Counted from the stretch's first letter, positions 1,600 to 64,000 are shown. The stretch is 64,000 nt of DNA from Synergistaceae bacterium (GCA_036652335.1 JAVVWB010000004.1:1-64000); one strand, 5' to 3'. Numbers and translations: made by a program. The notes: generated by a model not told the origin, from the letters alone.

Positions 1600-1733
1600 A
1601 AAAAGTGCTCTTTATTGGAAACCCAGAACCCCCATGGCACCCAAAAGACACCGCTTAATGCTGCTTCCTTCCGGACCTGACATGATTCGCGGGCTTTCGC
1701 CGCATGGGACTGGATTTCCAATAAAAAGCACTT
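1600..1733 (-). ncRNA. ffs: signal recognition particle RNA (small, 4.5S-type SRP RNA, ffs)
   Basis: The minus strand reads ...GGUGCC...GUCAGGUCCGGAAGGAAGCAGC..., the hallmark domain IV motif of bacterial SRP RNA. A long closing helix (aagugcuuuuuauuggaaaucc / gguuuccaauaaagagcacuuuuuc) and a U-tract at the 3' end are present. Confidence 0.75.
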
Positions 1734-1811: not shown

Positions 1812-1888
1812 TGGCGTGCCTGTGGGGATTCGAACCCCAGACCTTTGCCTTCGGAGGGCAATACTCTATCCAGCTGAGCTACAGGCAC
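1812..1888 (-). tRNA. tRNA-Arg (anticodon CCG)
   Basis: Cloverleaf on the minus strand: GUGCCUG acceptor stem, anticodon loop CUCCGAA, GGUUCGAAUCC T-arm, encoded CCA. Confidence 0.85.
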
Positions 1889-2459: not shown

Positions 2460-2552
2460 GGAGGGGTGGCCGAGAGGTCGAAGGCGGGCGACTCGAAATC
2501 GTCTTGGCGGTGCTGAGCTGTCACGTGGGTTCAAATCCCACTCCCTCCGCCA
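2460..2552 (+). tRNA. tRNA-Ser (anticodon CGA)
   Basis: GGAGGGG acceptor stem, anticodon loop CUCGAAA, long variable arm, GGUUCAAAUCC T-arm, encoded CCA. Confidence 0.9.
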
Positions 2553-2587: not shown

Positions 2588-2676
2588 GGAGAGTTGTCCG
2601 AGTGGTCTATGGTGAACGGTTGGAAGCCGTTTGCGGTGTTGAGCCGCCAGAGGTTCAAATCCTCTACTCTCCGCCA
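2588..2676 (+). tRNA. tRNA-Ser (anticodon GGA)
   Basis: GGAGAGU acceptor stem, anticodon loop UUGGAAG, long variable arm, GGUUCAAAUCC T-arm, encoded CCA. Confidence 0.9.
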
Positions 2677-29661: not shown

Positions 29662-29738
29662 CGGGATGTAGCGCAGCCTGGCTAGCGTACCTGCATGGGG
29701 TGCAGGTGGTCGGAGGTTCGAATCCTCTCATCCCGACC
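29662..29738 (+). tRNA. tRNA-Pro (anticodon GGG)
   Basis: CGGGAUG acceptor stem, anticodon loop AUGGGGU, GGUUCGAAUCC T-arm; followed by a terminator at about 29747-29782. Confidence 0.85.
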
Positions 29739-43796: not shown

Positions 43797-43975
43797 ATTG
43801 CATAAAATATTTTTATGTTGTACAATACACAATATAATGTTGATTTAGTGATTAGGGGGGGAGTATTCATGTGCAAATTTGTAAATGCAGTTCGTGAAAG
43901 CTGGATACTAACTTCTAATTGGTTGTTTGTTTAGACTGCCTTTGTAGGTGGTCTTTTTTTGTATTTAAAGGGGGA
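43797..43975 (+). promoter_or_regulatory. pyr operon promoter and PyrR-dependent attenuator leader
   Basis: TTGCAT-17-TACAAT promoter at about 43797-43830. Candidate PyrR-binding loop UUCGUGAAAGCUGG. Terminator hairpin gactgcc...ggtggtc plus T7 just before the pyrR Shine-Dalgarno. Confidence 0.5.
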
Positions 43976-43981
43976 ATGGAT

Positions 43982-44536
43982 ATGCACTTGTTGAAAGAAA
44001 AAGCTCAGCTTATGTCCTCACAGGATATTAGCAGGGTAATTCGCAGAATTGCGAATGAAATATTGGAACAAAATAAAGGTACGGAGAACATGGTTTTGGT
44101 AGGTATACATCGCAGGGGGGTATACTTAGCTCGCCGTATTCAGAAAATGATTTATGAGATGGAAAATGAAAAGATACCATGTGGAGAACTTGACATTACT
44201 CTTTATAGAGATGATTTAACTTCTTTATTTGAGCAACCAGTAGTCCACAGTACAAGAATGCCAGTAGACATATCAGGAAAAAAAGTTTTTCTTGTTGATG
44301 ATGTCCTTTATACAGGTAGAACCGTTAGAGCAGCACTAGAAGCATTGGTTGATTTGGGAAGACCCTCTCATGTTAAATTAGTTGTAATCATTGATAGAGG
44401 GCACAGAGAGCTACCGATTCATGCTGATATATATGGTAAAAAAGTTCCAACGTCAAAGAATGAAGTTATTGAGGTTAGAGTAAGTGAATTAGATGAAAAA
44501 GATGAGGTGGTCATTTGTGAACGAGAGTCTAAATGA
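43982..44536 (+). CDS. pyrR: bifunctional pyrimidine operon regulator / uracil phosphoribosyltransferase PyrR
   Basis: VFLVDDVLYTGRT PRPP-binding motif; AAAGGGGGA Shine-Dalgarno. Confidence 0.9.
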   Translation: MHLLKEKAQLMSSQDISRVIRRIANEILEQNKGTENMVLVGIHRRGVYLARRIQKMIYEMENEKIPCGELDITLYRDDLTSLFEQPVVHSTRMPVDISGKKVFLVDDVLYTGRTVRAALEALVDLGRPSHVKLVVIIDRGHRELPIHADIYGKKVPTSKNEVIEVRVSELDEKDEVVICERESK

Positions 44537-45473
44537 AGAATCTCAGGTAATATGGAGACATAGAAGTGTTATTGATATTGCTGGATGGACAAGGGACGAA
44601 CTTTATTTTCTTCTAAATCAGTCTAAAAATATGGAGAACGTAATGGATCGTCCAATTAAAAAGGTCCCTGTACTTCGGGGGAAAATGTGTGTGAATCTCT
44701 TTTACGAAAATTCAACTAGGACTCGAGTTTCCTTTGAACTAGCTGAAAAAATGCTATCAGCAGATGTTGTTAACTGGTCTGTTTCTGGCTCAAGCCATGC
44801 TAAAGGAGAAACAATGAGGGATACAGCATGGACACTTGAAGCAATGGGGGCAGACATTGTAGTAATGAGACATGGCGATGTAGGAGCACCTCAATATCTT
44901 GCATCTAAGTTAAAAAGAGCAATAGTAATTAATGCAGGTGATGGTACTCATGCACATCCAACACAAGCCCTTTTAGATCTATATACAGCATGGAAACATT
45001 TCGGTAATCTTGAAGGTAAGAAAATTGCGATCCTTGGAGACGTACTTTGTAGCAGGGTTGCCAGAAGTAATATCATTGGTTTTAAAACAATGGGATGTGA
45101 TGTTGTCTTATCTGGTCCACCGACTGTAATGCCTAGGGATGTGGAATCTCTTGGATGCCAATATGTAAGAGATGCAAAAAAAGCTGTTGAAGATGCAGAT
45201 ATCGTATATCTTTTAAGAGTTCAGAAGGAACGACAACAAGACGGGCTTTTCCCCTCTGTTCATGAATATCATACATGGTGGGGAGCGGATAAAGATCTAC
45301 TTTCCTATGCTAAACCATCAGCTCTTGTAATGCACCCAGGGCCTATAAACAGAGGCGTTGAAATTGCATCAGATGTTGCAGATGGTTCTCAGAGTGTAAT
45401 ACTTGAGCAGGTTCGCTCTGGTGTTGCAATAAGAATGGCCTTACTCTATCTTTGCGGAGGTGGCGCTAGATAA
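44493..45473 (+). CDS. pyrB: aspartate carbamoyltransferase catalytic subunit
   Basis: STRTR and HPTQ motifs. Start uncertain: ATG 44493 or GTG 44520 after GAGGTGG. The gene overlaps the pyrR 3' end. Confidence 0.85.
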   Translation: MKKMRWSFVNESLNEESQVIWRHRSVIDIAGWTRDELYFLLNQSKNMENVMDRPIKKVPVLRGKMCVNLFYENSTRTRVSFELAEKMLSADVVNWSVSGSSHAKGETMRDTAWTLEAMGADIVVMRHGDVGAPQYLASKLKRAIVINAGDGTHAHPTQALLDLYTAWKHFGNLEGKKIAILGDVLCSRVARSNIIGFKTMGCDVVLSGPPTVMPRDVESLGCQYVRDAKKAVEDADIVYLLRVQKERQQDGLFPSVHEYHTWWGADKDLLSYAKPSALVMHPGPINRGVEIASDVADGSQSVILEQVRSGVAIRMALLYLCGGGAR

Positions 45474-46780
45474 TGAATAACATACTTTTAAAGGATTTTA
45501 GAATTTTTGACGGTAAAAAGTTTCTAAAAGAAACTTCTTTGGCAATAAAAAATGGCATTATCTCAGAAATAGCAGAAAATATTTCAGGTGATTTTGAAGA
45601 AGTTTATCATGGAGACAATGTAAAAATCATTTCACCAGGATTTATCGATTTACATGCACATTTTAGAGATCCAGGTGGAGAGTGGCATGAGGATGTTTAT
45701 TCTGGAGCAAATGCTGGTGCTGCAGGTGGTTTTACGACATTAGTTGCTATGCCTAACACTTCTCCGGCAATATCTGAATCCTCTCTTGTAGAGTATGTCT
45801 TAAGACATGGCAAAGCTGCTAATGCCGCCAGAATTTTGCCTTCGGGTTGTGTAAGTAAAAATAGAGAGGGCAAAGAAATGGCGGAGCTTTTAAAAATGAG
45901 TGAGGCTGGTGCAGTTTTCTTTACCGATGATGGTGCTCCTGTAGCTACAAGTAATCTTCTTCGTCTATCACTCCTTTATACAGGAAAAGAGCTTCCTCGT
46001 ATAATGGAACATCCGGAAGATGTCACCTTATTTAAGGGAGGACAAGTCCACGAGGGAAAAGTGAGTGCATTAAGTGGATTAAAAGGTATCCCCGCAGCAT
46101 CAGAAGAAATTGACGTTGCAAGAGGCATTGCTTTAGCAAGAGAGACAAATGGCAGAATACACTTTACTCATTTAAGTAGCAGGGGAGCTCTAGGGCTTAT
46201 AAGACAGGCAAAAAAAGAAGGGCTTGATGTAACGTGTGATACAACGTTCCATCACTTAACTTTGAATGAAAATGCTGTAATCAATAGTGGCTATAACTCT
46301 AGATACAAGGTTAATCCACCTCTTCGTAGCCCAGAAGATCAAAGGGCTATGTGGGAAGGGCTACAGGATGGTACAATAGATGCGATTGTTACAGATCATG
46401 CTCCATGGCATATGGACAGGAAAGATGAACCATTTCAAGATTCGCCTTTTGGTATTGCTTCTTTGGAATGTGCAGTAGCTGTATTGCTAGATTACAGAAC
46501 AAAGACATATCCAGATGTATCACTTGAGACAATATTGAATAAAATCACATCTTCTCCAGCAAGTTTGTTACCTGATAAATGGCAAAAATTAGGCAACTTA
46601 GAAAAAGGTGCTATGGCTGATATAACAATCATAGATGAAAAACGTACAAGAGTTGTAAATTGCAATGAATGGAAAAGTAAAGCCCGTTGCTGTCCATGGG
46701 AAGGTATGGCTCTTACCTCTTGGCCGATTATGACATTCGTTGAAGGTCAAAAAATTTGGGAAGATATAGAAGAATTTTAA
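45473..46780 (+). CDS. pyrC: dihydroorotase
   Basis: DLHAHFRDPG metal-binding motif. Confidence 0.9.
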   Translation: MNNILLKDFRIFDGKKFLKETSLAIKNGIISEIAENISGDFEEVYHGDNVKIISPGFIDLHAHFRDPGGEWHEDVYSGANAGAAGGFTTLVAMPNTSPAISESSLVEYVLRHGKAANAARILPSGCVSKNREGKEMAELLKMSEAGAVFFTDDGAPVATSNLLRLSLLYTGKELPRIMEHPEDVTLFKGGQVHEGKVSALSGLKGIPAASEEIDVARGIALARETNGRIHFTHLSSRGALGLIRQAKKEGLDVTCDTTFHHLTLNENAVINSGYNSRYKVNPPLRSPEDQRAMWEGLQDGTIDAIVTDHAPWHMDRKDEPFQDSPFGIASLECAVAVLLDYRTKTYPDVSLETILNKITSSPASLLPDKWQKLGNLEKGAMADITIIDEKRTRVVNCNEWKSKARCCPWEGMALTSWPIMTFVEGQKIWEDIEEF

Positions 46781-46802
46781 TAAATCAGTGGAGGTTAACT
46801 AA

Positions 46803-47519
46803 ATGATGAAAGAAAAATGTGGTCTTATTGTAGCTTTGGATGTTCCTACTTTATCTGATGCACGCAATTTTTTAGGACGTTTAGATAAAGCAACTAAATA
46901 TATAAAAATAGGGCCCAGACTTTATGCTATGGGTGGAATAGGTTTTGCAAAGGAAATAATTAATATGGGATACAACCTTTTTCTTGATTTAAAACTCCAT
47001 GATATCCCGAACACAGTGGCATCTGCAGTTGAACCTCTTTCTGAACTTGGACTTTGGGCTCTAACTATCCATACATCAGGTGGATATGAAATGATGGCAC
47101 GCTCAGTTGCTATGAGAGATAAAACAGGAAGCAATATGAATTTACTTGGTATAACGGTTCTTACTTCACTAGGAGGAAATTTGTGGAGTGACGTACACCC
47201 TGGTTCAGATTTACAAGAGGCACTTGTATCACGTGCATGTGAGGCAGAGAAGGCTGGTTTGGATGGAATAGTATGTTCACCTCTTGATCTTGAATTGCTT
47301 AGAGGAAAAGCACAAAAGCTTTTGAGAGTCGTTCCTGGAATTAGAGCAAAGAAGGTAAGTACGGAAGACCAAACACGAGTTGCTACTGCTAAAGATGCAG
47401 CTGAAAATGGTGCAAACTATATTGTTGTAGGTAGGCCTATTATTGAAGCTATAGACCCTGTTATTGCGACACAAGAAATATTAAAGACACTTTCGGAGGC
47501 TAATTACAATGACAAATAA
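46803..47519 (+). CDS. pyrF: orotidine-5'-phosphate decarboxylase
   Basis: IVALD...DLKLHDIPNT. Confidence 0.9.
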   Translation: MMKEKCGLIVALDVPTLSDARNFLGRLDKATKYIKIGPRLYAMGGIGFAKEIINMGYNLFLDLKLHDIPNTVASAVEPLSELGLWALTIHTSGGYEMMARSVAMRDKTGSNMNLLGITVLTSLGGNLWSDVHPGSDLQEALVSRACEAEKAGLDGIVCSPLDLELLRGKAQKLLRVVPGIRAKKVSTEDQTRVATAKDAAENGANYIVVGRPIIEAIDPVIATQEILKTLSEANYNDK

Positions 47520-48111
47520 ATGTGAAAATTACGAAGAAGTATCTTCCAAAATTCAGGAAATGATGAAAGAAAGTGGAGCACATCTCGAGGGGCACTTTAA
47601 ATTGACTTCGGGACTACATAGTGGTCACTATGTGCAGTGTGCTCTAATGTTGCGTTATCCACAATTTGCAGCTTATGCAGGAGAAAAGCTTGCAGAACGA
47701 CTTGCACCTTTAAAACCTGATTTCGTCCTTTCTCCAGCATTAGGTGGGCTTATAATCGGACATGAGGTTGCTAGAGCTTTGGGAGTACCATTTATATTTT
47801 GTGAACGACAAGATGGAGAAATGCGGTTGCGTAGGTTCCCTGCCCCTGTTGGCAAGAAATTTGTAATGATCGAAGATGTAGTTACGACAGGAAAATCATC
47901 AAGAGAAACGGCTCAGATTTTGGTTGATTTAGGAGCAGAATGGGTTGGTTCTGGTTCTATTATTGACAGACGTCCAGCGAATTTAGAGGATGATTGGAAT
48001 TTACAATCACTTTGGAAATTGTCCTTTCCCGTTTATACAGAAGAAGAATGCCCATTTTGCAAAGAAGGACTCCTTTTGGTAAAACCAGGAAGCCGTCCTG
48101 ACAAAAAATAG
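47509..48111 (+). CDS. pyrE: orotate phosphoribosyltransferase
   Basis: VMIEDVVTTGKS PRPP motif. Confidence 0.9.
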   Translation: MTNKCENYEEVSSKIQEMMKESGAHLEGHFKLTSGLHSGHYVQCALMLRYPQFAAYAGEKLAERLAPLKPDFVLSPALGGLIIGHEVARALGVPFIFCERQDGEMRLRRFPAPVGKKFVMIEDVVTTGKSSRETAQILVDLGAEWVGSGSIIDRRPANLEDDWNLQSLWKLSFPVYTEEECPFCKEGLLLVKPGSRPDKK

Positions 48112-54975: not shown

Positions 54976-55494
54976 TTATTTATATGATGATTCCGGTGCG
55001 GCAGGAAGTGTTGTAAGTTTATTTCTGCTATTTATAACTTTCTGTGATTCTGCATCGGTCCATTTAGTAATTTTTTCTGTAAGAGCATCATCATTAATGG
55101 ATAATATCCGAGCTGCAAGAATGCAGGCATTTTTTGCTCCGTTTAACCCCATTGATGCTACAGGTACTCCAGGGGGCATTTGTGCTACAGAGAGAAGCGC
55201 ATCAAGTCCATCAAGTGCGCCACCTTTAACAGGAACACCAATTACTGGAAGTGTAGTTGATGCGGCAACGACTCCAGGAAGAGCAGCAGAAAGTCCAGCG
55301 ACAGCAATTATGACTTTAATTCCTCTGTTTTTTGCATTTCTTGAATAATGCTCAACATCTGAAGGGGTTCTGTGTGCAGAAGCTATAGCAACCTCATATT
55401 CAATCCCAATTTCTTCTAAGACACCTACTCCTTTTTCTACAATAGGAATATCTGATGCGGAGCCCATTATTATCCCAATCTTCGGATTAGACAT
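54976..55494 (-). CDS. purE: N5-carboxyaminoimidazole ribonucleotide mutase
   Basis: PKIGIIMGSASD. Confidence 0.9.
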   Translation of the reverse strand: MSNPKIGIIMGSASDIPIVEKGVGVLEEIGIEYEVAIASAHRTPSDVEHYSRNAKNRGIKVIIAVAGLSAALPGVVAASTTLPVIGVPVKGGALDGLDALLSVAQMPPGVPVASMGLNGAKNACILAARILSINDDALTEKITKWTDAESQKVINSRNKLTTLPAAPESSYK

Positions 55495-56771
55495 TAGTTG
55501 TCCTCCTTTAAAGATTTGTCACCGATGTCATTTCGGAAATGCATATCTTTAAATGTGATTGTTTTTACCCGTTTGTATGCCAGTTGTTTTGCTTCTTTCA
55601 GGGTATTTGCTAATGCTACAACAGTAAGAACTCGTCCTCCTGATGTCACAATTTCTCCGTTCACATTCTTAGCAGTTCCAGCATGATAAATAAAAGTGTT
55701 TTCTATGTGTGAGTTTAAACCTGAAATTTCGTATCCTTTTTCAAACTTATCAGGGTACCCACCAGAAGCTATAACTACACCAAGAGCTGTTTGTATCGGT
55801 TCTGGCCATGCTACTGATGATAATTCTCCCTTTGCGCAAGCAAGTATAACTTCACCAAAGTCACCATTATAGACAGGTAAGACAACTTGTGTTTCAGGGT
55901 CACCTAAGCGCACATTATATTCTAAAACTGATAAGGAGCCATCTTCTTTTACCATTATTCCAGCATAAATTACGCCGCAAAACGGAATGCCATCTTCTTT
56001 TAAGCCGTTAACAGTGGGGTCTAATACTTCTTTTGTAACCTTTTGCATAAAGGGTTCATCAACCCATGGTACAGGTGAATATGCCCCCATTCCACCAGTG
56101 TTATTCCCTTTGTCACCGTCATATACACGTTTATGATCTTGACTTGAAGGTAACACACGTACCACGTGACCGTCTGTTATTGCGAGTACTGTCATTTCTA
56201 TTCCAGGTACAAAATCTTCAATTACAACTATGCTCCCTGCGTCGCCTAATGTATTGGATTCAAGCATCATTTCACAGGTTTCAAGTGCCTCTTCAAAAGT
56301 GTCTAATAAAAAGGCGCCCTTTCCAGCTGCGAGTCCATCAGCCTTTACAACGTAAGGTGCAGTGCGTTTGTTTAGTGCAACCTTACAGCTCTCAATGTCT
56401 GTGCAACAGTCAAAAGAAGAAGTAGGAATGTTATGTCTTTTCATAAATTCCTTTGAAAAAGCTTTACTTCCTTCTAGTCTTGCACCAGATTTTCCTGGTC
56501 CCATGACAAGAACGCCGTTTTCCCTTAATGTGTCAGCTGTTCCTGCAACGAGTGGTGCTTCTGGTCCAACAAAAACAACTCCAATTTTTTCATTAAGGCA
56601 CAAATCTAGCATTGCTTGAGGATCACATGGATTACCAGAATGACATATGGCAAGTTCAGCAATTCCTGGATTTCCAGGACAACAATGGAGACCGTCTACT
56701 ATTTTGGACTGAGAAAGCTTGTGTATTACTGCGTGCTCTCTTCCGCCACTACCGAGAACAAGAAAATTCAT
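55494..56771 (-). CDS. purD: phosphoribosylamine-glycine ligase
   Basis: MNFLVLGSGGREHA and ATP-grasp motifs. Confidence 0.9.
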   Translation of the reverse strand: MNFLVLGSGGREHAVIHKLSQSKIVDGLHCCPGNPGIAELAICHSGNPCDPQAMLDLCLNEKIGVVFVGPEAPLVAGTADTLRENGVLVMGPGKSGARLEGSKAFSKEFMKRHNIPTSSFDCCTDIESCKVALNKRTAPYVVKADGLAAGKGAFLLDTFEEALETCEMMLESNTLGDAGSIVVIEDFVPGIEMTVLAITDGHVVRVLPSSQDHKRVYDGDKGNNTGGMGAYSPVPWVDEPFMQKVTKEVLDPTVNGLKEDGIPFCGVIYAGIMVKEDGSLSVLEYNVRLGDPETQVVLPVYNGDFGEVILACAKGELSSVAWPEPIQTALGVVIASGGYPDKFEKGYEISGLNSHIENTFIYHAGTAKNVNGEIVTSGGRVLTVVALANTLKEAKQLAYKRVKTITFKDMHFRNDIGDKSLKEDN

Positions 56772-56783
56772 AATTTCTCCTCC

Positions 56784-58313
56784 TTAGTGTCTAAAGGTAC
56801 GGCTCCCGCCGACAAACATACTTATACCTAGTTCTTCTGTTCTATCAAAAACTAATTGGTCTTTGATGGAGCCACCAGGTTGTATTACGACTTCTATGCC
56901 ATGTTCTGCTGCTAATTCTATTGTGTCTGGGAATGGAAAGAAAGCGTCGGATGCAAGGACAGCACCTTTGGCTTTATCTCCAGCAAGATTCATTGCGTAT
57001 CTTGCTGCATCAATTCTGTTTGTAAATCCGCCACCGATACCAACAGCAGCTCCGTCTTTTACAAGTACAATGGAGTTGCTTTTTGTTATTGCAGCAGTTT
57101 TCCATGCAAAAATAAGATCATCCCATTTATCATTTCTTGGATTACCAACCCACTTCCCTTTTTCTATTTCGGGAAGAGAGGGAAGTTTGTCTTCTTGAAC
57201 AAGGAAACCACAACGGTTTGCTGTAATTTGAAGCTTCGGAGCATATCCAGGTGTTATAGTAAGGACACGAAGATTTGGTTTTTTTTCTTTAAAGTATTCA
57301 ATGACATCGTCATCAAATGATGGTGCAGCAACAATTTCAAAGAATGTCTCTGTTATTGTTTTTGCTGTTTCTATGTCCACTTTACGTGTAAATCCAATTA
57401 TTCCGCCAAAAGCAGAAATTGGGTCGCATTCAAGTGCTTTACGAAATGCGTGTAAAGTTGTGTCTGCGTGTGCAGTGCCACATGGCGTTGTATGTTTTAC
57501 AATTGTGCAAGCACAGAGGTCTTGGAATACAGAACATCCTCTTAGTAGGGTATCAAGGTCAAGCAAATTATTATATGAAAGTTCCTTGCCGGAATGTTGT
57601 TCAAATGGTTGCTTTTCAAGTGGTGGTAAATAAAGAGCAGCATTCTGATGTGGATTTTCACCATATCTTAGTTCTTGAATTTTACGAAGAGGTAATACCT
57701 TTACTTCTTCATTTGGAAGTTCTTCTTTTCCTGTTTCTGAACAAAGCCCCTTGTATATTGTGGAGTCATATTGTGATGTAAGTTGGAATGCTTTGAGAGC
57801 CAATTCCTGCTTAAACTCAAGAGTTAGTTCTTGTTTTTTAACAAGTTCTTCTATTAGTCTTGGATAATCTGCGATGTCTGTTACTACTGCCACGTGATAA
57901 TAGTTTTTGGCTCCTGCTCTTATTAATGAGACTCCACCTATGTCTATTTTTTCTATTAGTTGATCTAAGTCGGCACCGCTTTTTGCTGTTTCTTCAAAAG
58001 GATATAATGTGCAAACAACAATATCTATGAGTGGAATGTTGAAATTTTTTCTGTCTTCGTCATCCTGTGCAAGTCCTCTGCGTGCAAGGATTCCTCCCAT
58101 GATTACAGGGTGTAAAGTTTTTACCCTGCCACCAAGTATTGCAGGTAGACCTGTTATGTCTACTACTTCTGTTACTTTTATGCCGCCGTCTTCCAAATAT
58201 TTTGCAGTGCCAGAACTAGATACTATTTCATATCCTTGTTCAACAAGACCTTTTGCTAGTTCTAGGACGCCTGTTTTATCCCAAACAGAAATTAGAGCTT
58301 TTCTTGATTCCAT
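56784..58313 (-). CDS. purH: bifunctional AICAR transformylase / IMP cyclohydrolase
   Basis: ALISVWDKTG MGS-like domain plus AICARFT domain. Confidence 0.9.
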   Translation of the reverse strand: MESRKALISVWDKTGVLELAKGLVEQGYEIVSSSGTAKYLEDGGIKVTEVVDITGLPAILGGRVKTLHPVIMGGILARRGLAQDDEDRKNFNIPLIDIVVCTLYPFEETAKSGADLDQLIEKIDIGGVSLIRAGAKNYYHVAVVTDIADYPRLIEELVKKQELTLEFKQELALKAFQLTSQYDSTIYKGLCSETGKEELPNEEVKVLPLRKIQELRYGENPHQNAALYLPPLEKQPFEQHSGKELSYNNLLDLDTLLRGCSVFQDLCACTIVKHTTPCGTAHADTTLHAFRKALECDPISAFGGIIGFTRKVDIETAKTITETFFEIVAAPSFDDDVIEYFKEKKPNLRVLTITPGYAPKLQITANRCGFLVQEDKLPSLPEIEKGKWVGNPRNDKWDDLIFAWKTAAITKSNSIVLVKDGAAVGIGGGFTNRIDAARYAMNLAGDKAKGAVLASDAFFPFPDTIELAAEHGIEVVIQPGGSIKDQLVFDRTEELGISMFVGGSRTFRH

Positions 58314-58337
58314 GGTAAAGACCTCCATATTTTGTAA

Positions 58338-58910
58338 TTAATTTTTTTCAAAAAAAGATTTTAAAGCAGTTTTATAAATTCTGTGTTCTGTCTTATGAAT
58401 ACGAGCTTCTAATGTTTCTATCGTGTCAGAAGGGCATCTTTCTACCTTTTCTTGAGCAAGAATAGGTCCGTGATCTACTTCTTCATCAACGATATGAACA
58501 GTTACGCCTGTGGTTGTTACTCCAGCATCCCACGCATCTTGTATAGCATGTGCACCTGGAAAGGAGGGGAGTAGTGCTGGATGAATATTAATTATTTTAC
58601 CTTTAAATTTTCTTACGAAAGTAGGTGATAATATTCTCATAAATCCAGCTAAAACTATCCAATCGGTTGAAGTTTCAGATATTGCTTCCGTAATTTTTTC
58701 TTCTGCCAATTCTTTACCAAAGTCTTTATAGCTAAATAACTTTGTGTCTATTCCATATGATTGCGCAGTTGCTATACCTTTTGCAGATATTCTGTCACTT
58801 CCGACAAAAGTAACTTCGGCTTGTAATTCGTTATCAATACAGGCCTCTACCAACTTTTCCATGTTAGAACCGGTACCTGATATTAGTATTGCAATACGCG
58901 GTTTTTTCAT
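58338..58910 (-). CDS. purN: phosphoribosylglycinamide formyltransferase
   Basis: IAILISGTGSN and the HPALLP region. Confidence 0.9.
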   Translation of the reverse strand: MKKPRIAILISGTGSNMEKLVEACIDNELQAEVTFVGSDRISAKGIATAQSYGIDTKLFSYKDFGKELAEEKITEAISETSTDWIVLAGFMRILSPTFVRKFKGKIINIHPALLPSFPGAHAIQDAWDAGVTTTGVTVHIVDEEVDHGPILAQEKVERCPSDTIETLEARIHKTEHRIYKTALKSFFEKN

Positions 58911-59923
58911 TTTTTTACTACCTTACCAATTACTACAGGGGTTTCACCTATTTTTGAAAGGGCTTCTTTTATGTCATTAAGGTCATTCTTATTTATTATT
59001 ATTGTGTATCCTATACCTAGGTTAAAGACCTTTCTCATTTCTTCCTCTTCAATTCCTGCAGTCTGAATTAGATCGAAAATTTTAGGTCTTTTCCATGAGT
59101 TAAAGTCGATATCTATATCTAAGTTGCTAGGTATAATTCTAATAACGTTACCGTACATTCCGCCACCTGTTACATGTGCCATACCATGAACTTTTGATGT
59201 TTTAACTGCTGCTAATGCCGCTTTAACATATAATTTTGTTGGCTTCATTACTGCTTCTGCAACGGTCTCGTCCCATCCATCGGGTGTTGAAGTGAGGTCA
59301 ATATTTAAACCATCTTTCCCGAGAGCAGAACGAACTAGGCTGTATCCGTTGCTGTGAACACCAGAGCTACTTAGTCCTAGAATAATGTCTCCTTCAGCTA
59401 TTTCTGAACCGTCAATAATTTTGTCCTCATCAACGATACCTACTGAGAAACCAGCTAAATCAAACCCCTTATCATCGTAGACACCTGGCATTTCTGCTGT
59501 TTCTCCGCCCAATAATGAGCAAAGGCTTTCTTCGCATGCATCTAGAATTCCTTCTACGACATCTTTAAGTAATGATACATTTAGCTTGCCACATGAAGCA
59601 TAATCAAGAAAAAATAGAGGTTTTGCTCCTCCTGTGACGAGGTCATTGACATTCATTGCTACTAGATCTTGCCCAAGACCTCTATATATTCCCGTTTCTT
59701 TTGCTAGCTCAAGCTTTGTGCCGACTCCATCACAGCAAGCAGCGATACATTGCCCTCCACCAATACGATAGAGACCAGCAAATCCGCCAACTCCACCAAC
59801 TGAATTTTTGTCTTTTTGTCTATTCTTAAGAAGGCCTTTTATTGTTTCAACCCAAGCATCTCCACCTGAAATGCTGACACCTGCTTTTTCATAACTCAAT
59901 TTTCCGGTCATTTTATTCACCAT
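58907..59923 (-). CDS. purM: phosphoribosylformylglycinamidine cyclo-ligase (AIR synthetase)
   Basis: YEKAGVSI, GGFAGL and DGVGTK motifs. Confidence 0.9.
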   Translation of the reverse strand: MVNKMTGKLSYEKAGVSISGGDAWVETIKGLLKNRQKDKNSVGGVGGFAGLYRIGGGQCIAACCDGVGTKLELAKETGIYRGLGQDLVAMNVNDLVTGGAKPLFFLDYASCGKLNVSLLKDVVEGILDACEESLCSLLGGETAEMPGVYDDKGFDLAGFSVGIVDEDKIIDGSEIAEGDIILGLSSSGVHSNGYSLVRSALGKDGLNIDLTSTPDGWDETVAEAVMKPTKLYVKAALAAVKTSKVHGMAHVTGGGMYGNVIRIIPSNLDIDIDFNSWKRPKIFDLIQTAGIEEEEMRKVFNLGIGYTIIINKNDLNDIKEALSKIGETPVVIGKVVKK

Positions 59924-61286
59924 CTTTAGTATTTTTTTGAGAGAGGTATTTACCTGTAAAACATGCTGTGCAAAGTTGGTCTTCCGGTATTCCTATTGCT
60001 TGTATCAAGTCTTCTTCCGTAAGGTAATTGAGGGAATCAGCGTTTACTTTCTTGCGTAATTCCTCCAAAGTCATTCTTACAGCTGCTAAACTTTCCTGCT
60101 TTCTAGTGTCTATACCATATTTGCAAGGGTATAAAACAGGGGGGGAAGCGACTCTAAGGTGTACCTCGGAGGCTCCAGATGTTCTTATCATATCAATTAT
60201 GCGTTCTGCAGTTGTACCCCTTACAATAGAGTCATCAACTATTACAGCTTTTTTACCGTTAAACACTTTAGAGATAGGGTTTAATTTAATTTTTACCCCT
60301 AGCTCACGTACTTTTTGTGTTGGTTGTATAAATGTTCTTCCTACGTAACGGTTCCTTACGACAGCAATTTCAAATGGTGTTCCAGATTCTTGTGCGTAGC
60401 CTATTGCAGATATTGTTCCGCTGTCAGGCATACCAGCTACCAAGTCAGCATCCTTACAAGGAGATTTTTCTGCGAGTAGTCTGCCCATTTCTTTTCTTGT
60501 TTCATAAACAGAACGTCCGTCTATAACACTGTCTGGCCTTGCAGTATATACATATTCAAAAGAACACCTCATACATCTTTCACAAGGGGCCTTTTGTCTA
60601 AGTTTAAGAGATCTCATTCCTTTGTGGTCAATAACAAGGATTTCTCCAGGTTCAATATCACGAATGAGTTCTGCACCTACTATATCAAGTGCACATGATT
60701 CAGAAGCAATGTAATATGTCTCATTCCTTTTGCCAACAACAAGTGGTTTAAATCCCCAAAGGTCTCTTGCTGCAACAAGCATACCATCTAAAATAACTGC
60801 TACAGCACATGAGCCTTCAAGCATGCGTAATGAATCAATAAAAGCATCAAGTGGTTGCATAAATGATTTTTGTGCCATTAGGTGCAGAATAGCTTCAGAG
60901 TCAGTGGCAGAGTGAAAAATTGAGCCACGATTTTCTAGGGTTTTTGTAACTTCTTCTAGGTTTGTGACACATCCGTCATGAGATATTGCAACTGGCCCTC
61001 TAGAGTATGTTGCTCCTAGAGGAAGTATGTTTTGTGGTTGAGACGGGTCTACTGGCAGATAACGAACATGCCCAATTGCATAGGACGCTTTCTTTTCTGC
61101 TAATTTTTCTTGCTTAATAGCATTGTGAAGTAGTCCTAATCCATGAGCAGAGGCAACTCTGTTTTTCTCAATCCATGAGATTCCAGCAGATTCCTGCCCT
61201 CTATGCTGAAGAGCATACAGTCCAAGATATACTTCTTCGAGAACTGTTTCTCCTTTTGTATTATAAGCACCAAAGATTCCACTCAT
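59913..61286 (-). CDS. purF: amidophosphoribosyltransferase paralog with substituted N-terminal nucleophile (Cys1->Ser) and Asn->Asp in the glutaminase site
   Basis: MSGIFGAY (the catalytic copy has MCGIFG). VAISHDGCVTN replaces the N-G oxyanion-hole pair of the other copy (VAIAHNGNLTN). PRTase domain intact (VDDSIVRGTT); Fe-S Cys ligands present. Starts 2 codons after the purC stop, in the same frame, with no Shine-Dalgarno. Confidence 0.8.
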   Translation of the reverse strand: MSGIFGAYNTKGETVLEEVYLGLYALQHRGQESAGISWIEKNRVASAHGLGLLHNAIKQEKLAEKKASYAIGHVRYLPVDPSQPQNILPLGATYSRGPVAISHDGCVTNLEEVTKTLENRGSIFHSATDSEAILHLMAQKSFMQPLDAFIDSLRMLEGSCAVAVILDGMLVAARDLWGFKPLVVGKRNETYYIASESCALDIVGAELIRDIEPGEILVIDHKGMRSLKLRQKAPCERCMRCSFEYVYTARPDSVIDGRSVYETRKEMGRLLAEKSPCKDADLVAGMPDSGTISAIGYAQESGTPFEIAVVRNRYVGRTFIQPTQKVRELGVKIKLNPISKVFNGKKAVIVDDSIVRGTTAERIIDMIRTSGASEVHLRVASPPVLYPCKYGIDTRKQESLAAVRMTLEELRKKVNADSLNYLTEEDLIQAIGIPEDQLCTACFTGKYLSQKNTKDGE

Positions 61287-61292
61287 ATGTTG

Positions 61293-62000
61293 TTACTCAG
61301 AGAGTCTCTTCCAAATTTCTTCGTATGCAGCAAGCACATTTCCCAAATCCTTACGGAAACGGTCCTTATCAAGATGGTCTCCTGTTGAACTGTCCCAGAA
61401 TCTGCATGTATCAGGTGATACTTCATCCGCAAGCATTAGATTACCATCTGAATCTTTACCAAATTCAAGCTTAAAGTCTACAAGTGTTACCCCTTTTGCT
61501 TTGAATAGTTCAGTAAGAGCTGAGTTTACACGAAGTGATATGTCTTTTATTTTTGCAATTTCTTCCTCTGTTGCCCATCCAAAAGCTGTTGCATAGTCTT
61601 CAATTACAAGTGGATCACCAAGGTCATCATTTTTGTAACTGAATTCAATAAGAGGGCGATTTAAAACAATTCCTTCTTTGACGCCTATACGCTTACAGAG
61701 TGAACCTGTTGTTATGTTGCGAACAATAACTTCAAGTGGTACTATGCTTACTCTTTTGACTACCTGATGGTTGTCATCTATTTTGCGTACAAAGTGAGAT
61801 TCAATGCCTTTTGATGCTAAATATTCAAATATTTTTGAGCTAATTTTGTTGTTAAGCTGTCCCTTACCACTCATAGTTGCTTTTTTCTCACCGTTAAAGG
61901 CTGTAAAGCTATCTTTGTATTCCACTATAACTAGATTAGGATCTTCTGTTGTGTAAAGTCTTTTTGCTTTTCCTTCGTAAATGAATTCTTTCTTTTCCAT
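61293..62000 (-). CDS. purC: phosphoribosylaminoimidazole-succinocarboxamide synthase
   Basis: EGKAKRLY ... typical SAICAR synthetase sequence. Confidence 0.9.
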   Translation of the reverse strand: MEKKEFIYEGKAKRLYTTEDPNLVIVEYKDSFTAFNGEKKATMSGKGQLNNKISSKIFEYLASKGIESHFVRKIDDNHQVVKRVSIVPLEVIVRNITTGSLCKRIGVKEGIVLNRPLIEFSYKNDDLGDPLVIEDYATAFGWATEEEIAKIKDISLRVNSALTELFKAKGVTLVDFKLEFGKDSDGNLMLADEVSPDTCRFWDSSTGDHLDKDRFRKDLGNVLAAYEEIWKRLSE

Positions 62001-62036
62001 GTTTATTACCTCCAGATTTTTTTGTAAATTATGTAT

Positions 62037-63410
62037 TTAGATATCGTTTATATTTTCAAATTCTTCGTTTTCAAGATAAGTTCCGTCAAAACAAGCGGTG
62101 CAAAGCTGGTCTCTTGGAATGCCTATTGCTTCTGCTAACTCATCGCATGATATGTATGTTAATGTATCGGCTTTGATTTTTTGACATAGTTCTTCTTGAT
62201 TTAGTTTAGTTGCTATTAATTCATCGGAAGTAGGGGTGTTTATTCCGTAGTAACAAGGGTGGGTGACAGGTGGAGAGGCAATTTTAATATGAACTTTTTC
62301 CGCCCCACTTTCCCTTATCATGGAAATAATTCTCTTTGCAGTAGTTCCTCTTACAAGAGAATCATCAACTAGAATGGCTTCCTTACCTTTAAATATATCA
62401 GGTTGAGGATTTAGCTTAATTTTTACTCCTGCTTCACGCACTCTTTGTGTCGGTTGAATAAAGGTTCGTCCAACGTAGCGGTTTCTTACAACTCCAACCT
62501 CAAAGGGTAATTTTGTCTCTTCAGCCATTCCCAAAGCAGCTAATGTTCCACTATCAGGCATGCCTGTGATTATTGTGTTTTCAGATAGTTTTGTGTTTTT
62601 AGAAAGAATTTTCCCAAGTTGTTTTCTTGCATAATATACAGAACTACCATCTATGGTGCTATCTGGTCTTGCAAAGTAAACATATTCAAAAGAACAATGG
62701 CGACACCTTTTAGGGGTGACAGAGATTTTCCTTGATGTAACTTTATCTTTTTCAATTATTAGAATTTCTCCAGGTTCAATGTCTCTTATCAGTTCAGCTC
62801 CTAGCAAGTCAAGAGCACATGATTCTGATGAAACATAATAAGTGTTCTCTTTTTTTCCTAGTACAAGAGGACGAAATCCCCATGGGTCACGGGCAGCGAT
62901 CAATGCCCCGTTGATAATTACAGCAAGACTATAAGCCCCTCGTAATTTTGAAAGTGCAGTTTCAAGTGCATCAATCTGTACTTTTGAAGGTTGATGTGCC
63001 ATTAACTGTAATATTACTTCTGTGTCTGTTGATGTGTGAAAGATTGCACCTTTGTTTTCTAGATAACCTGCCAGACCAATAAAATTTGTTAAATTTCCGT
63101 TATGTGCAATAGCAACAGGCCCTTGAGAATAATTTGCTCCCAAGGGTTGGCTGTTTCTATTTGTATAGTCTCCTGTTGTTGCGTAGCGAACATGGCCTAT
63201 TGCATAATTAGTATAAATTTTAGCTAGTTCATTTTGATTGAGTGCTTCATGAACCAATCCTAAGCCATTTTTTATGTGCAATCTATCTTCGGAAATCCAA
63301 GCGACTCCTGCAGACTCCTGACCTCTATGCTGTAAAGCATAGAGTCCAAGGTATATATCCTCTAGGACATTGTTGCTGTCCTGGCTATATGCACCGAAGA
63401 TTCCGCACAT
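62037..63410 (-). CDS. purF: amidophosphoribosyltransferase (canonical, Cys1 nucleophile)
   Basis: MCGIFGAY, RGQESAG, HNGNLTN and VDDSLVRGTT; Cys ligands for the 4Fe-4S cluster. Confidence 0.9.
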   Translation of the reverse strand: MCGIFGAYSQDSNNVLEDIYLGLYALQHRGQESAGVAWISEDRLHIKNGLGLVHEALNQNELAKIYTNYAIGHVRYATTGDYTNRNSQPLGANYSQGPVAIAHNGNLTNFIGLAGYLENKGAIFHTSTDTEVILQLMAHQPSKVQIDALETALSKLRGAYSLAVIINGALIAARDPWGFRPLVLGKKENTYYVSSESCALDLLGAELIRDIEPGEILIIEKDKVTSRKISVTPKRCRHCSFEYVYFARPDSTIDGSSVYYARKQLGKILSKNTKLSENTIITGMPDSGTLAALGMAEETKLPFEVGVVRNRYVGRTFIQPTQRVREAGVKIKLNPQPDIFKGKEAILVDDSLVRGTTAKRIISMIRESGAEKVHIKIASPPVTHPCYYGINTPTSDELIATKLNQEELCQKIKADTLTYISCDELAEAIGIPRDQLCTACFDGTYLENEEFENINDI

Positions 63411-64000
63411 TTATTTGGTATCCTCTTTAAAAGCAGTATTCAATTCATTTAGAGAAACCGACATAAAGTCATTGATAATCAATTTGTCCGATCCAGCAGC
63501 TCCAATTTTAGTTATTTTAAATGATTGCCATACTTTTTTAAATTCTTCTTCATTCTTAGATGGGACAGCATATATTGCTCGTGCTCCACCTTCTGAGAAC
63601 AACATTGCCTCTGTAGTTGTTTCTGGTTTGATATTGATATCAATACCAATTTGTGAGGATATTGCTTCACTTGCGAGTGCTACGGCTAAGCCGCCACCAG
63701 CAATGGCTCTTACAGAGTTTGCTAGCGATTTTTGTGCTGTAGCTAAGGCGCAGTCTCTAAAAGTTTTCTCTGCTTCAAAATTTGGTTCTACAGTCTTACC
63801 TAATGGTATACCATCTTTTGCTATTTGATAGCGTGAAGCTCCAAGGGAACCATCAACAGAACCTACAAGATATAAGGCGTCTCCGTTCTGAGTTTTCCCT
63901 GACGGAACAAGTTTGTTTCTGTCTACAGCTAATCCGGCTGTTACAACTAGTGGCGTTGGGTAGATGCGTCCGTCAGAAGTTTCGTTGTATAAACTTACAT
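63411..64000 (-). CDS. purL: phosphoribosylformylglycinamidine synthase subunit PurL (C-terminal part; 5' end outside the window)
   Basis: Open minus-strand frame to the window edge, translating ...GRIYPTPLVVTAGLAV...IAGGGLAVALASEAI...MLFSEGGARAIYAV... (PurL C-terminal domain). The stop abuts the purF start. Confidence 0.7.
   Translation of the reverse strand, partial: VSLYNETSDGRIYPTPLVVTAGLAVDRNKLVPSGKTQNGDALYLVGSVDGSLGASRYQIAKDGIPLGKTVEPNFEAEKTFRDCALATAQKSLANSVRAIAGGGLAVALASEAISSQIGIDINIKPETTTEAMLFSEGGARAIYAVPSKNEEEFKKVWQSFKITKIGAAGSDKLIINDFMSVSLNELNTAFKEDTK

Follow-up and report, generated by a model that had tools for sequence, protein, structure and literature searches.

Organization of the purine operon

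The subject of this report is a pair of purF (amidophosphoribosyltransferase) genes in a 64,000-nucleotide stretch of DNA from a Synergistaceae bacterium (GCA_036652335.1, JAVVWB010000004.1:1-64000), hereafter the window, and in particular the downstream member of the pair, purF', whose predicted product lacks the catalytic cysteine. A preliminary description made from the sequence alone had placed two 457-aa purF genes in the order purL-purF-purC-purF', and open reading frame (ORF) calling on the minus strand recovered both within a compact operon at the right end of the window, in the order purL-purF-purC-purF'-purM-purN-purH-purD-purE. Genes, junctions and diagnostic codons are listed below.

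63411..64000, minus strand: 3' part of purL (small FGAM synthase II); the gene continues past the window end
63411..63413, minus strand: purL stop codon TAA, directly adjoining the purF ATG; the junction reads aaataaATGTGC
62037..63410, minus strand: purF, canonical glutamine-dependent amidophosphoribosyltransferase, 457 aa (TIGR01134, 499 bits, and active-site table)
62001..62036, minus strand: purF-purC spacer of 36 nt with a GGAGG ribosome-binding site, read from sequence as aaaaaatctggaggtaataaacATG
61293..62000, minus strand: purC (SAICAR synthetase), 235 aa, between both purF copies (Pfam SAICAR_synt, E=1e-88; TIGR00081, 279 bits)
61287..61292, minus strand: purC-purF' spacer CAACAT, 6 nt, read from sequence
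59913..61286, minus strand: purF', Cys-less PurF paralogue, 457 aa (TIGR01134, 436 bits; alignment and site table)
61281..61283, minus strand: purF' codon 2, AGT, placing Ser2 at the catalytic Cys1 position (sequence and alignment)
60975..60977, minus strand: purF' codon 104, GAC, placing Asp104 at the oxyanion-hole Asn101 position (sequence and alignment)
58907..59923, minus strand: purM (Pfam of orthologous loci and identity to them, as for the next four genes)
58338..58910, minus strand: purN
56784..58328, minus strand: purH
55494..56771, minus strand: purD
54976..55494, minus strand: purE

The purL fragment has 52-66% identity to the PurL C-termini of related loci, and the genes at those loci carry AIRS/AIRS_C Pfam domains. 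Genes of the purM-purE block (54976..59923) overlap or abut and are 68-88% identical to orthologous loci. The purS and purQ genes and the 5' end or leader of the operon lie outside the window, and an Rfam scan of the window and nine related loci returned no purine riboswitch, ZTP riboswitch or other leader.

The preliminary description had proposed searching other genomes for purC flanked by two purF genes, and such tandem loci were found in Cloacibacillus, Synergistes and several metagenome-assembled genomes (MAGs). In the window, the purC stop lies in the purF' frame two codons (CAA CAT) before the purF' ATG, and there is no AGGAGG-like site 5-10 nt 5' of the purF' start. The gap is exactly 6 nt, with no well-placed Shine-Dalgarno sequence, at all ten tandem loci examined. 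This conserved spacing fits the translational coupling that had been proposed from the window alone, and supports the view that purF' is translated by coupling to purC. A hidden upstream start, or a propeptide that might supply the missing Cys, was ruled out, as the in-frame purC stop two codons 5' of the ATG leaves room for neither. As a separate observation, purC and purF' share a frame at all ten tandem loci (window 61287-61295 and nine others), such that read-through of the stop would yield a PurC-PurF' fusion.

Family, fold and active sites of the two PurF copies

PurF and PurF' are 56% identical and 76% similar over 451 residues. Both match Pfam GATase_6/7 and Pribosyltran, and both pass the purF equivalog model TIGR01134 (curated cutoff 350 bits) with scores of 499 and 435.9, respectively. 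A phmmer comparison of PurF' with the PDB matched Bacillus subtilis PurF (1ao0_A, E=1e-118), to which PurF' is approximately 41-45% identical over the full length. The AlphaFold2 model of PurF' had a predicted local distance difference test score (pLDDT) of 80.9 and a predicted template modeling score (pTM) of 0.79. Using Foldseek, the best PDB match of this model was 1ao0_A (template modeling score 0.78), and the top matches (1ao0_A, 1gph, 6lbp and 1ecb) scored 0.77-0.79. As modeled, PurF' superposes on the B. subtilis, Arabidopsis and E. coli enzymes, with a predicted N-terminal domain of the N-terminal nucleophile (Ntn) type and a C-terminal type I phosphoribosyltransferase (PRTase) domain.

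Residue numbers follow E. coli PurF, with the N-terminal sequence checked against 1ecb and 8w7d, and alignment was made to B. subtilis PurF 1ao0. The upstream copy begins MCGIFG, contains IAHNGNL, and has Cys1, Arg26-Gly27, Arg73-Tyr74, Thr76, Asn101-Gly102 and Asp127. The downstream copy begins MSGIFG and carries the motif ISHDGCV. These motifs agree with the preliminary reading of Cys1 and Asn-Gly in the first copy (MCGIFG/HNGNL) and of Cys1 to Ser and Asn to Asp changes in the second (MSGIFG/HDGCV), and the alignment to the B. subtilis and E. coli proteins that it had called for locates Ser2 and Asp104 at the true catalytic positions. Two further differences of PurF' are Pro78 in place of Thr76 and Thr248 at the position of E. 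coli Phe259. Retained in PurF' are the equivalents of Arg26, Gly27, Arg73 (Arg75), Tyr74, Gly102 (Gly105) and Asp127 (Asp129), together with the flexible loop (RNRYVGRTFI) and Tyr258. The site table likewise bears out the earlier statement that both copies keep the phosphoribosyl pyrophosphate (PRPP) motif, VDDSIVRGTT in each, and the four Fe-S cysteines (B. subtilis C236, C382, C437 and C440; PurF' C241, C388, C439 and C442).

In the canonical enzyme, Arg73 forms a salt bridge with the glutamine carboxylate, and Tyr74 and Ile335 wall a 20-angstrom ammonia channel (PMC7953260), while Tyr258 contacts the PRPP pyrophosphate (PMC7056826). Measured against the features of a class II glutamine amidotransferase, PurF' lacks both the N-terminal Cys1 nucleophile and the Asn of the Asn101-Gly102 oxyanion hole. 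It has instead the features of an amidotransferase with a dead glutaminase: the nucleophile is lost, the transferase site is intact and the domain is retained.

Conservation and selection in the PurF' clade

Among the best 120 homologues of PurF', approximately 100 have a non-Cys residue 1 together with H-D-G, and below approximately 62% identity the matches become MCG.../HNG. The window PurF is missing from this homologue search because a 192-aa fragment (P0269, 'hypothetical protein RR272_04615') stands for its 90% cluster. The PurF' clade comprises approximately 95 protein clusters from Synergistaceae, with 100% neighbor-joining (NJ) bootstrap support, and its named members are Cloacibacillus evryensis, Cloacibacillus porcorum, Synergistes jonesii and Synergistaceae MAGs. 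Site counts in 95 PurF' clusters, with 125 representatives as the canonical comparison, were as follows.

Residue 1: Ser 81, Ala 14, Cys 0
Asn101: Asp in 95/95, vs Asn in 125/125 canonical representatives
Thr76: Pro in 94/95, Thr in 0/95
Asp127 (ligand of the glutamine alpha-amino group): Asp 29, Asn 51, Ser 14, His 1
Arg73: kept in 91/95
Asp366/367, Arg332, Phe334, Ile335, Tyr258 and the four Fe-S Cys: kept in 94-95 of 95

The PRPP loop (DDS.VRGTT) and the flexible loop are likewise kept in 94-95 clusters. Position 1 is not a conserved Ser/Thr nucleophile, since Ala occupies it in 14 of the 95 clusters, and Gly in a related Gly1 group and in P0423. The Ala subclade shows further decay of the glutamine site, with Tyr74 changed to Ser or Asn and Asp127 to Ser. 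Only nine fixed differences separate PurF' from canonical Synergistota PurF, including Pro78, Asp104 and Thr248; none falls in the PRPP or flexible loops, and Thr248 (Phe259 to Thr) adjoins the PRPP-contacting Tyr258. At the level of the clade, with residue 1 being Ser, Ala or Gly, Thr76 lost and Asp127 present in 29/95, these patterns support the earlier proposal that PurF' should be unable to hydrolyse glutamine.

PurF' is under strong purifying selection. The ratio of nonsynonymous (dN) to synonymous (dS) divergence, omega, was 0.04-0.18 for both copies where dS was unsaturated; saturation in most pairs left few usable omega values, and dN and per-domain identity were relied upon instead. 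Between the window and the related MAG locus L001, PRTase domain identity was 86% for PurF' and 71% for the canonical copy, and N-domain identity was 73% and 72%, respectively. The PurF' N-domain is as conserved as its canonical counterpart, suggesting it is not free to decay.

These results also bear on whether purF' stems from an error of sequencing or assembly, or is a pseudogene in decay. A change from TGT to AGT requires only a single base. However, the exact PurF' and PurF proteins recur in 3-4 independent NCBI/Logan assemblies of a Synergistaceae MAG and so do not reflect a single-read error, and approximately 95 clusters share the changes; the preliminary description had likewise dismissed a point error, given the divergence of the two copies over their whole length. 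Against a pseudogene, purF' has an unbroken frame, an omega far under 1 and stronger conservation than the canonical copy beside it. The probability of an artefact or pseudogene is accordingly negligible.

Cys-less PurF in Bacillota and Tissierellia

A PurF' profile was compared with 1.84 billion representative proteins, and the best 150 matches were examined. This library is clustered at 50% identity, so that all Synergistota PurF and PurF' collapse into the canonical representative P0274, and it is therefore useful only for finding other Cys-less lineages. Among the 50%-identity representatives, Asp101 was present in 7/12 Cys-less proteins vs 0/122 Cys-containing ones (Fisher p=6e-9). The named Cys-less representatives belong to Tissierellia, Tissierellaceae or Bacillota MAGs. 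When the two diagnostic columns were masked, the Asp101 proteins fell into at least 4 (median 7) separate groups across NJ bootstraps, suggesting that the combination of Cys1 loss and Asn101 to Asp arose convergently; all Synergistota PurFs formed one clade in 100% of replicates. A single ancient origin of all Asp101 PurFs, considered as an alternative, was ruled out by the same masked-column bootstraps.

Four Bacillota Cys-less/Asp101 PurFs (L027-L030) are each the sole purF of a complete pur operon, with in-frame stops just 5' of their starts; the Bacillota lineages with this arrangement pair Ser1 or Gly1 with Asp101. This context helps to weigh the idea that PurF' now serves some other reaction that depends on PRPP, with another nucleophile or at another step, its link to the pur operon being historical. 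Such a change of function would be in keeping with clade-specific fixed changes, Phe259 to Thr close to the PRPP site and Pro78 in what used to be the glutamine loop, and PurF is known to be promiscuous, with TrpF-like activity as an example (cited in PMC3261824). However, the place of purF' between purC and purM is conserved, analogous proteins fill the canonical purF slot alone in other lineages, and the fixed differences number only nine, with the PRPP and flexible loops untouched. Recruitment to a new reaction is thus given only a slim chance.

The Tissierellia lineage to which P0279 belongs has 120 clusters, among them the isolates Tissierella sp. MSJ-40 and Wansuia hejianensis. Ser occupies residue 1 in 117/117 determinable clusters, and position 101 is Asp in 118/120 and Glu in the other two. 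In the two Glu101 clusters (SRYTHEGD) the acidic character is retained but the exact residue is not. The adjacent large PurL of this lineage, encoded 5' of purE, has lost its Cys/His/Glu glutaminase triad at 14/14 readable loci (loci surveyed: L030, L032-L042 and L052-L054), with GICNGFQ changed to GIGNGFQ, GIGSGF. or similar (Cys to Gly) and GHSER changed to SSIDR, TAIDR or similar (His-Ser-Glu to Ser/Ala-Ile-Asp). From these motifs, both purine amidotransferases appear to be glutaminase-dead in the Tissierellia lineage. The PurL triad is intact in two other Cys-less lineages (L028 and L029). At L029 (13771-18723), a 1650-aa ORF encodes a fusion of PurD (GARS) and a large PurL in which the glutaminase motif is intact; the purF of that operon is Cys-less (Ala/Ser1, NDG).

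The consistent Ser1 of this lineage raises the possibility that the Ser1 forms, including that of the window, are still amidohydrolases, in which a weaker Ser1 nucleophile would be aided by Asp101, as in Ser/Thr Ntn hydrolases, and would act on glutamine or another amide. Consistent with this, the window PurF' keeps Arg26, Gly27, Arg73, Tyr74, Gly102 and Asp127 in addition to Ser1, Arg73 and Asp127 are mostly kept in the Tissierellia alongside the invariant Ser1, and the additional glutamine-site decay in the Ala subclade is as expected if the Ser forms had kept some function that disappeared from the Ala forms. Nevertheless, Ala (14/95) and Gly variants in or beside the clade keep Asp101 and stay conserved, Thr76 is lost throughout, and Asp127 is replaced by Asn in 51/95. 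A carboxylate in the oxyanion hole should destabilize the tetrahedral intermediate, and the destroyed triad of the neighboring Tissierellia PurL points away from glutamine use. Furthermore, the E. coli PurF variants C1A and C1S lost glutamine activity and kept NH3-dependent synthesis of phosphoribosylamine (PRA) (Mei and Zalkin 1989, as cited in PMC3261824), so that Ser at this position did not sustain glutamine use in that enzyme. Retained hydrolase activity of the Ser1 forms is therefore regarded as distinctly unlikely.

Synteny, origin and cysteine loss in Synergistaceae

Cloacibacillus (L018, L019), Synergistes (L020, L021) and the MAGs L001, L002, L003, L006, L023 and L024 share a conserved arrangement, purS-purQ-purL-purF(Cys)-purC-purF'-purM-N-H-D-E. 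A PurF' scan of genome contigs returned just 4 close Synergistaceae loci along with distant canonical PurFs, the peptide patterns being too specific. A canonical single-copy arrangement is found in the Aminomonas paucivorans cluster (L031), where purC-purS-purQ-purL-purF(Cys)-purM-N-H-D-E lies behind the same divergent ABC-transporter genes. The simplest history would be that a purC-purS-purQ-purL-purF block was duplicated in tandem and that the first purC and the second purS-purQ-purL were then lost, which would strand purC between two purF copies. In NJ bootstraps, 95.6% of replicates joined PurF' to the canonical Synergistota PurFs of single-copy loci and left the upstream copies outside, and the upstream clade, which includes the window PurF, was recovered in 99.8%. 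According to this grouping, the Cys-retaining upstream copy is the faster-evolving branch.

The closest relative of the window locus, L025 (purC 89%, PurF' 87% and PurM 88% identical), has an upstream purF (1021-2394) that also lacks Cys1 (ATG TCC, a single-base change from TGC), with HSG for HNG and Tyr74 changed to His. This upstream protein is just 69% identical to the window PurF, and the same protein occurs in a second sample (P0267). With both operon copies Cys-less and PurF' conserved, glutamine-dependent PurF is apparently dispensable in this organism.

Loss of Cys is also seen elsewhere in the family. In two Synergistaceae MAGs near Aminomonas (L022:3773-8035 and L026:3267-7528), the operon is purC-purL-purF-purM-N-H-D-E, and its sole purF is of the MGG../HDG type (Gly1/Asp101); purS and purQ, present in L031, are absent, and the purC-purL gap is 27 nt. 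The PurQ of L024 (3015-3731) reads GIGNGFQ, with Gly for the catalytic Cys, and its FPGSNCD motif is altered; among the PurF' types found, that of the same locus is the most degenerate, with MAGL.., QDG and the changes of Tyr74 to Asn and Asp127 to Ser.

These loci are informative as to whether PurF' is instead a non-catalytic or regulatory subunit that forms a hetero-oligomer with PurF, tuning feedback inhibition or stability and producing little PRA itself. PurF is a dimer or tetramer with inter-subunit nucleotide sites, the two paralogues are 56% identical with equal length and fold, and their genes belong to one operon, are transcribed together and are coupled in translation, with spacing conserved at all ten loci, all of which would suit such a partnership, as would the fixed Phe259 to Thr change beside Tyr258, a residue that contacts PRPP or nucleotide. 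Pointing the other way, the PRTase catalytic and loop residues are invariant, and that domain shows greater conservation in PurF' than in the canonical copy; Cys-less/Asp101 PurFs stand alone in the pur operons of other lineages; and both copies are Cys-less in L025. The ammonia channel is intramolecular, so that the glutaminase of a partner could not feed PurF'. A hetero-oligomeric role is unlikely, albeit the least improbable of the alternatives weighed.

Proposed ammonia-dependent PRA synthesis

We favor, as probable, the reading that PurF' is a competent phosphoribosyltransferase with a permanently disabled and re-purposed glutaminase site, which would form PRA from PRPP with free ammonia, not glutamine, as the nitrogen donor. 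The nucleophile, one oxyanion ligand and Thr76 are lost, Asp127 is lost from most of the clade, and the channel wall, the closing loop and the PRTase site are kept, which makes an ammonia-dependent PRA synthase the best-supported candidate function. The preliminary description had offered two roles, an ammonia-dependent PRA synthase or a regulatory or structural partner of PurF; comparative genomics favors the former, through sole-operon Cys-less/Asp101 PurFs, loss of the PurL/PurQ glutaminase and invariant PRTase machinery, and the latter is disfavored.

Under the favored reading, the window operon would encode two first-step enzymes, a glutamine-dependent PurF and an ammonia-dependent PurF'. 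The small residue 1 (Ser, Ala or Gly) would allow removal of Met and leave a free alpha-amino group, beside which the Asp101 carboxylate would attract NH4+ and help to deprotonate it at the channel mouth. From there, NH3 would reach the PRTase site by the intramolecular channel already present. That Asp101 is both invariant and convergent, and that residue 1 is limited to Ser, Ala or Gly, suggests that the glutaminase pocket has been remodeled rather than abandoned. Synergistota and Tissierellia ferment amino acids and peptides at high ammonia concentrations, and bypassing glutamine saves the ATP spent by glutamine synthetase. The benefit would presumably be a saving of glutamine and ATP in amino-acid-fermenting, ammonia-rich niches.

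A bolder proposal, advanced here tentatively, is that a small residue 1 and Asp101 constitute a purpose-built site for ammonium capture and deprotonation feeding the old channel, convergent at least 4 times, and mark de novo purine synthesis that does without glutamine in anaerobes fermenting amino acids (Synergistota, Tissierellia), with the PurL/PurQ glutaminase also lost in some lineages. In a more radical variant, Ser1 and Asp101 of the Ser forms may act as a new catalytic pair on an amide donor.

Several points weigh against ammonia-dependent synthesis by PurF'. The use of NH3 is a prediction drawn from the behavior of the E. coli C1A and C1S variants and from genomic context, and the ammonium-binding role of an Asp in the oxyanion hole is purely conjectural. 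The conservation of Ser1, and mostly of Arg73 and Asp127, in the Tissierellia lineage leaves room for residual chemistry on an amide donor. Sole-copy status applies at the level of the operon, and a second canonical purF may exist elsewhere in those genomes. The window genes are co-transcribed and tightly coupled with no differential regulation visible, an arrangement to which a heteromer would be equally suited. Phylogenetic placements come from NJ trees only, and that of the Gly1 group is split, with 48% for PurF' and 47% for the canonical proteins. Finally, most Synergistaceae with PurF' retain a Cys-containing PurQ, indicating that glutamine is probably still used at the PurL step in the group to which the window belongs.

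If PurF' does use ammonia, Synergistaceae would have two nitrogen entry routes into purines, and some Tissierellia and one Synergistaceae lineage may dispense with glutamine at the PurF step of purine synthesis and, in some cases, at the PurL step as well. Nucleotide synthesis would then be tied directly to the high ammonia of amino acid fermentation in guts and digesters. Cultured hosts include Cloacibacillus evryensis, Cloacibacillus porcorum, Synergistes jonesii, Tissierella sp. MSJ-40 and Wansuia hejianensis.

Other features of the window

A pyrimidine cluster occupies 43919-48111 on the plus strand and consists of a 205-aa ORF (possibly pyrR), pyrB (OTCace), pyrC (amidohydrolase), pyrF (OMPdecase) and pyrE (Pribosyltran); carA/carB and pyrD are not within the cluster. 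RNA genes are listed below.

1617-1716, minus strand: bacterial small signal recognition particle RNA
1815-1888, minus strand: tRNA gene
2460-2549, plus strand: tRNA gene
2588-2673, plus strand: tRNA gene
29662-29736: fourth tRNA gene

GC skew is strongly positive from position 1 to approximately 54 kb, a region of mainly plus-strand genes, and becomes negative across the pur operon, which is on the minus strand. The resulting peak in cumulative GC skew at approximately 54-56 kb could reflect gene-strand bias or a replication landmark.

Comparison with known systems

A literature search, with incomplete coverage that leaves the absence of a report unproven, found no paper on natural Cys-less/Asp101 PurFs, the Asp101 signature or joint loss of the PurL glutaminase. 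Canonical PurF (EC 2.4.2.14; B. subtilis 1ao0/1gph, with a 4Fe-4S cluster) shares with PurF' the two-domain fold, the PRPP and flexible loops, the Tyr74/Ile335 wall, the Fe-S cysteines and the place in the pur operon. PurF' differs by the changes of Cys1 to Ser, Asn101 to Asp and Thr76 to Pro, and by an Asp127 that is not conserved across the clade; given these differences, PurF' is not expected to be glutamine-dependent. By sequence and fold it belongs to the PurF family, but it should probably not be filed as a glutamine-dependent EC 2.4.2.14 enzyme. The products of both window genes are currently named 'amidophosphoribosyltransferase', and as both pass the purF equivalog model, metabolic reconstructions assign glutamine dependence to an enzyme that almost certainly does not have it.

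A functional parallel is provided by the E. coli C1A and C1S variants, for which PMC3261824 gives the same NH3-only activity as is proposed for PurF'. Those are single engineered mutants, whereas PurF' represents a natural, long-conserved lineage with an invariant Asn101 to Asp change and further fixed changes. A natural counterpart is Mlab_0150 of Methanocorpusculum labreanum, a PurF paralogue with Ser for the catalytic Cys, to which no function was assigned (Brown et al. 2011, PMC3261824). Like PurF', it is a natural Ser-for-Cys duplicate beside a canonical copy; unlike PurF', it is archaeal and is described as a recent species-level duplication, the comparison here being by description only.

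Vertebrate carbamoyl phosphate synthetase (CPS) I, in which the catalytic Cys is absent, uses free ammonia only (PMC7657897). It resembles PurF' in retaining a glutaminase-like domain without the Cys and in its ammonia-rich physiological setting. Its glutaminase is of the class I triad type and is unrelated to the Ntn domain, however, so that the likeness is mechanistic and evolutionary rather than homologous. If the favored reading holds, the recurrent Asn101 to Asp change would amount to a natural experiment in converting an Ntn glutaminase site to direct ammonia use, in parallel with the change of CPS III into CPS I.

Within class II (Ntn) proteins, the AsnB-derived beta-lactam synthetase and carbapenam synthetase are homologues that have lost the N-terminal Cys, with the N-domain still folded and the synthetase active. 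These enzymes gained a new reaction, beta-lactam ring closure, whereas PurF' appears to keep the ancestral acceptor chemistry.

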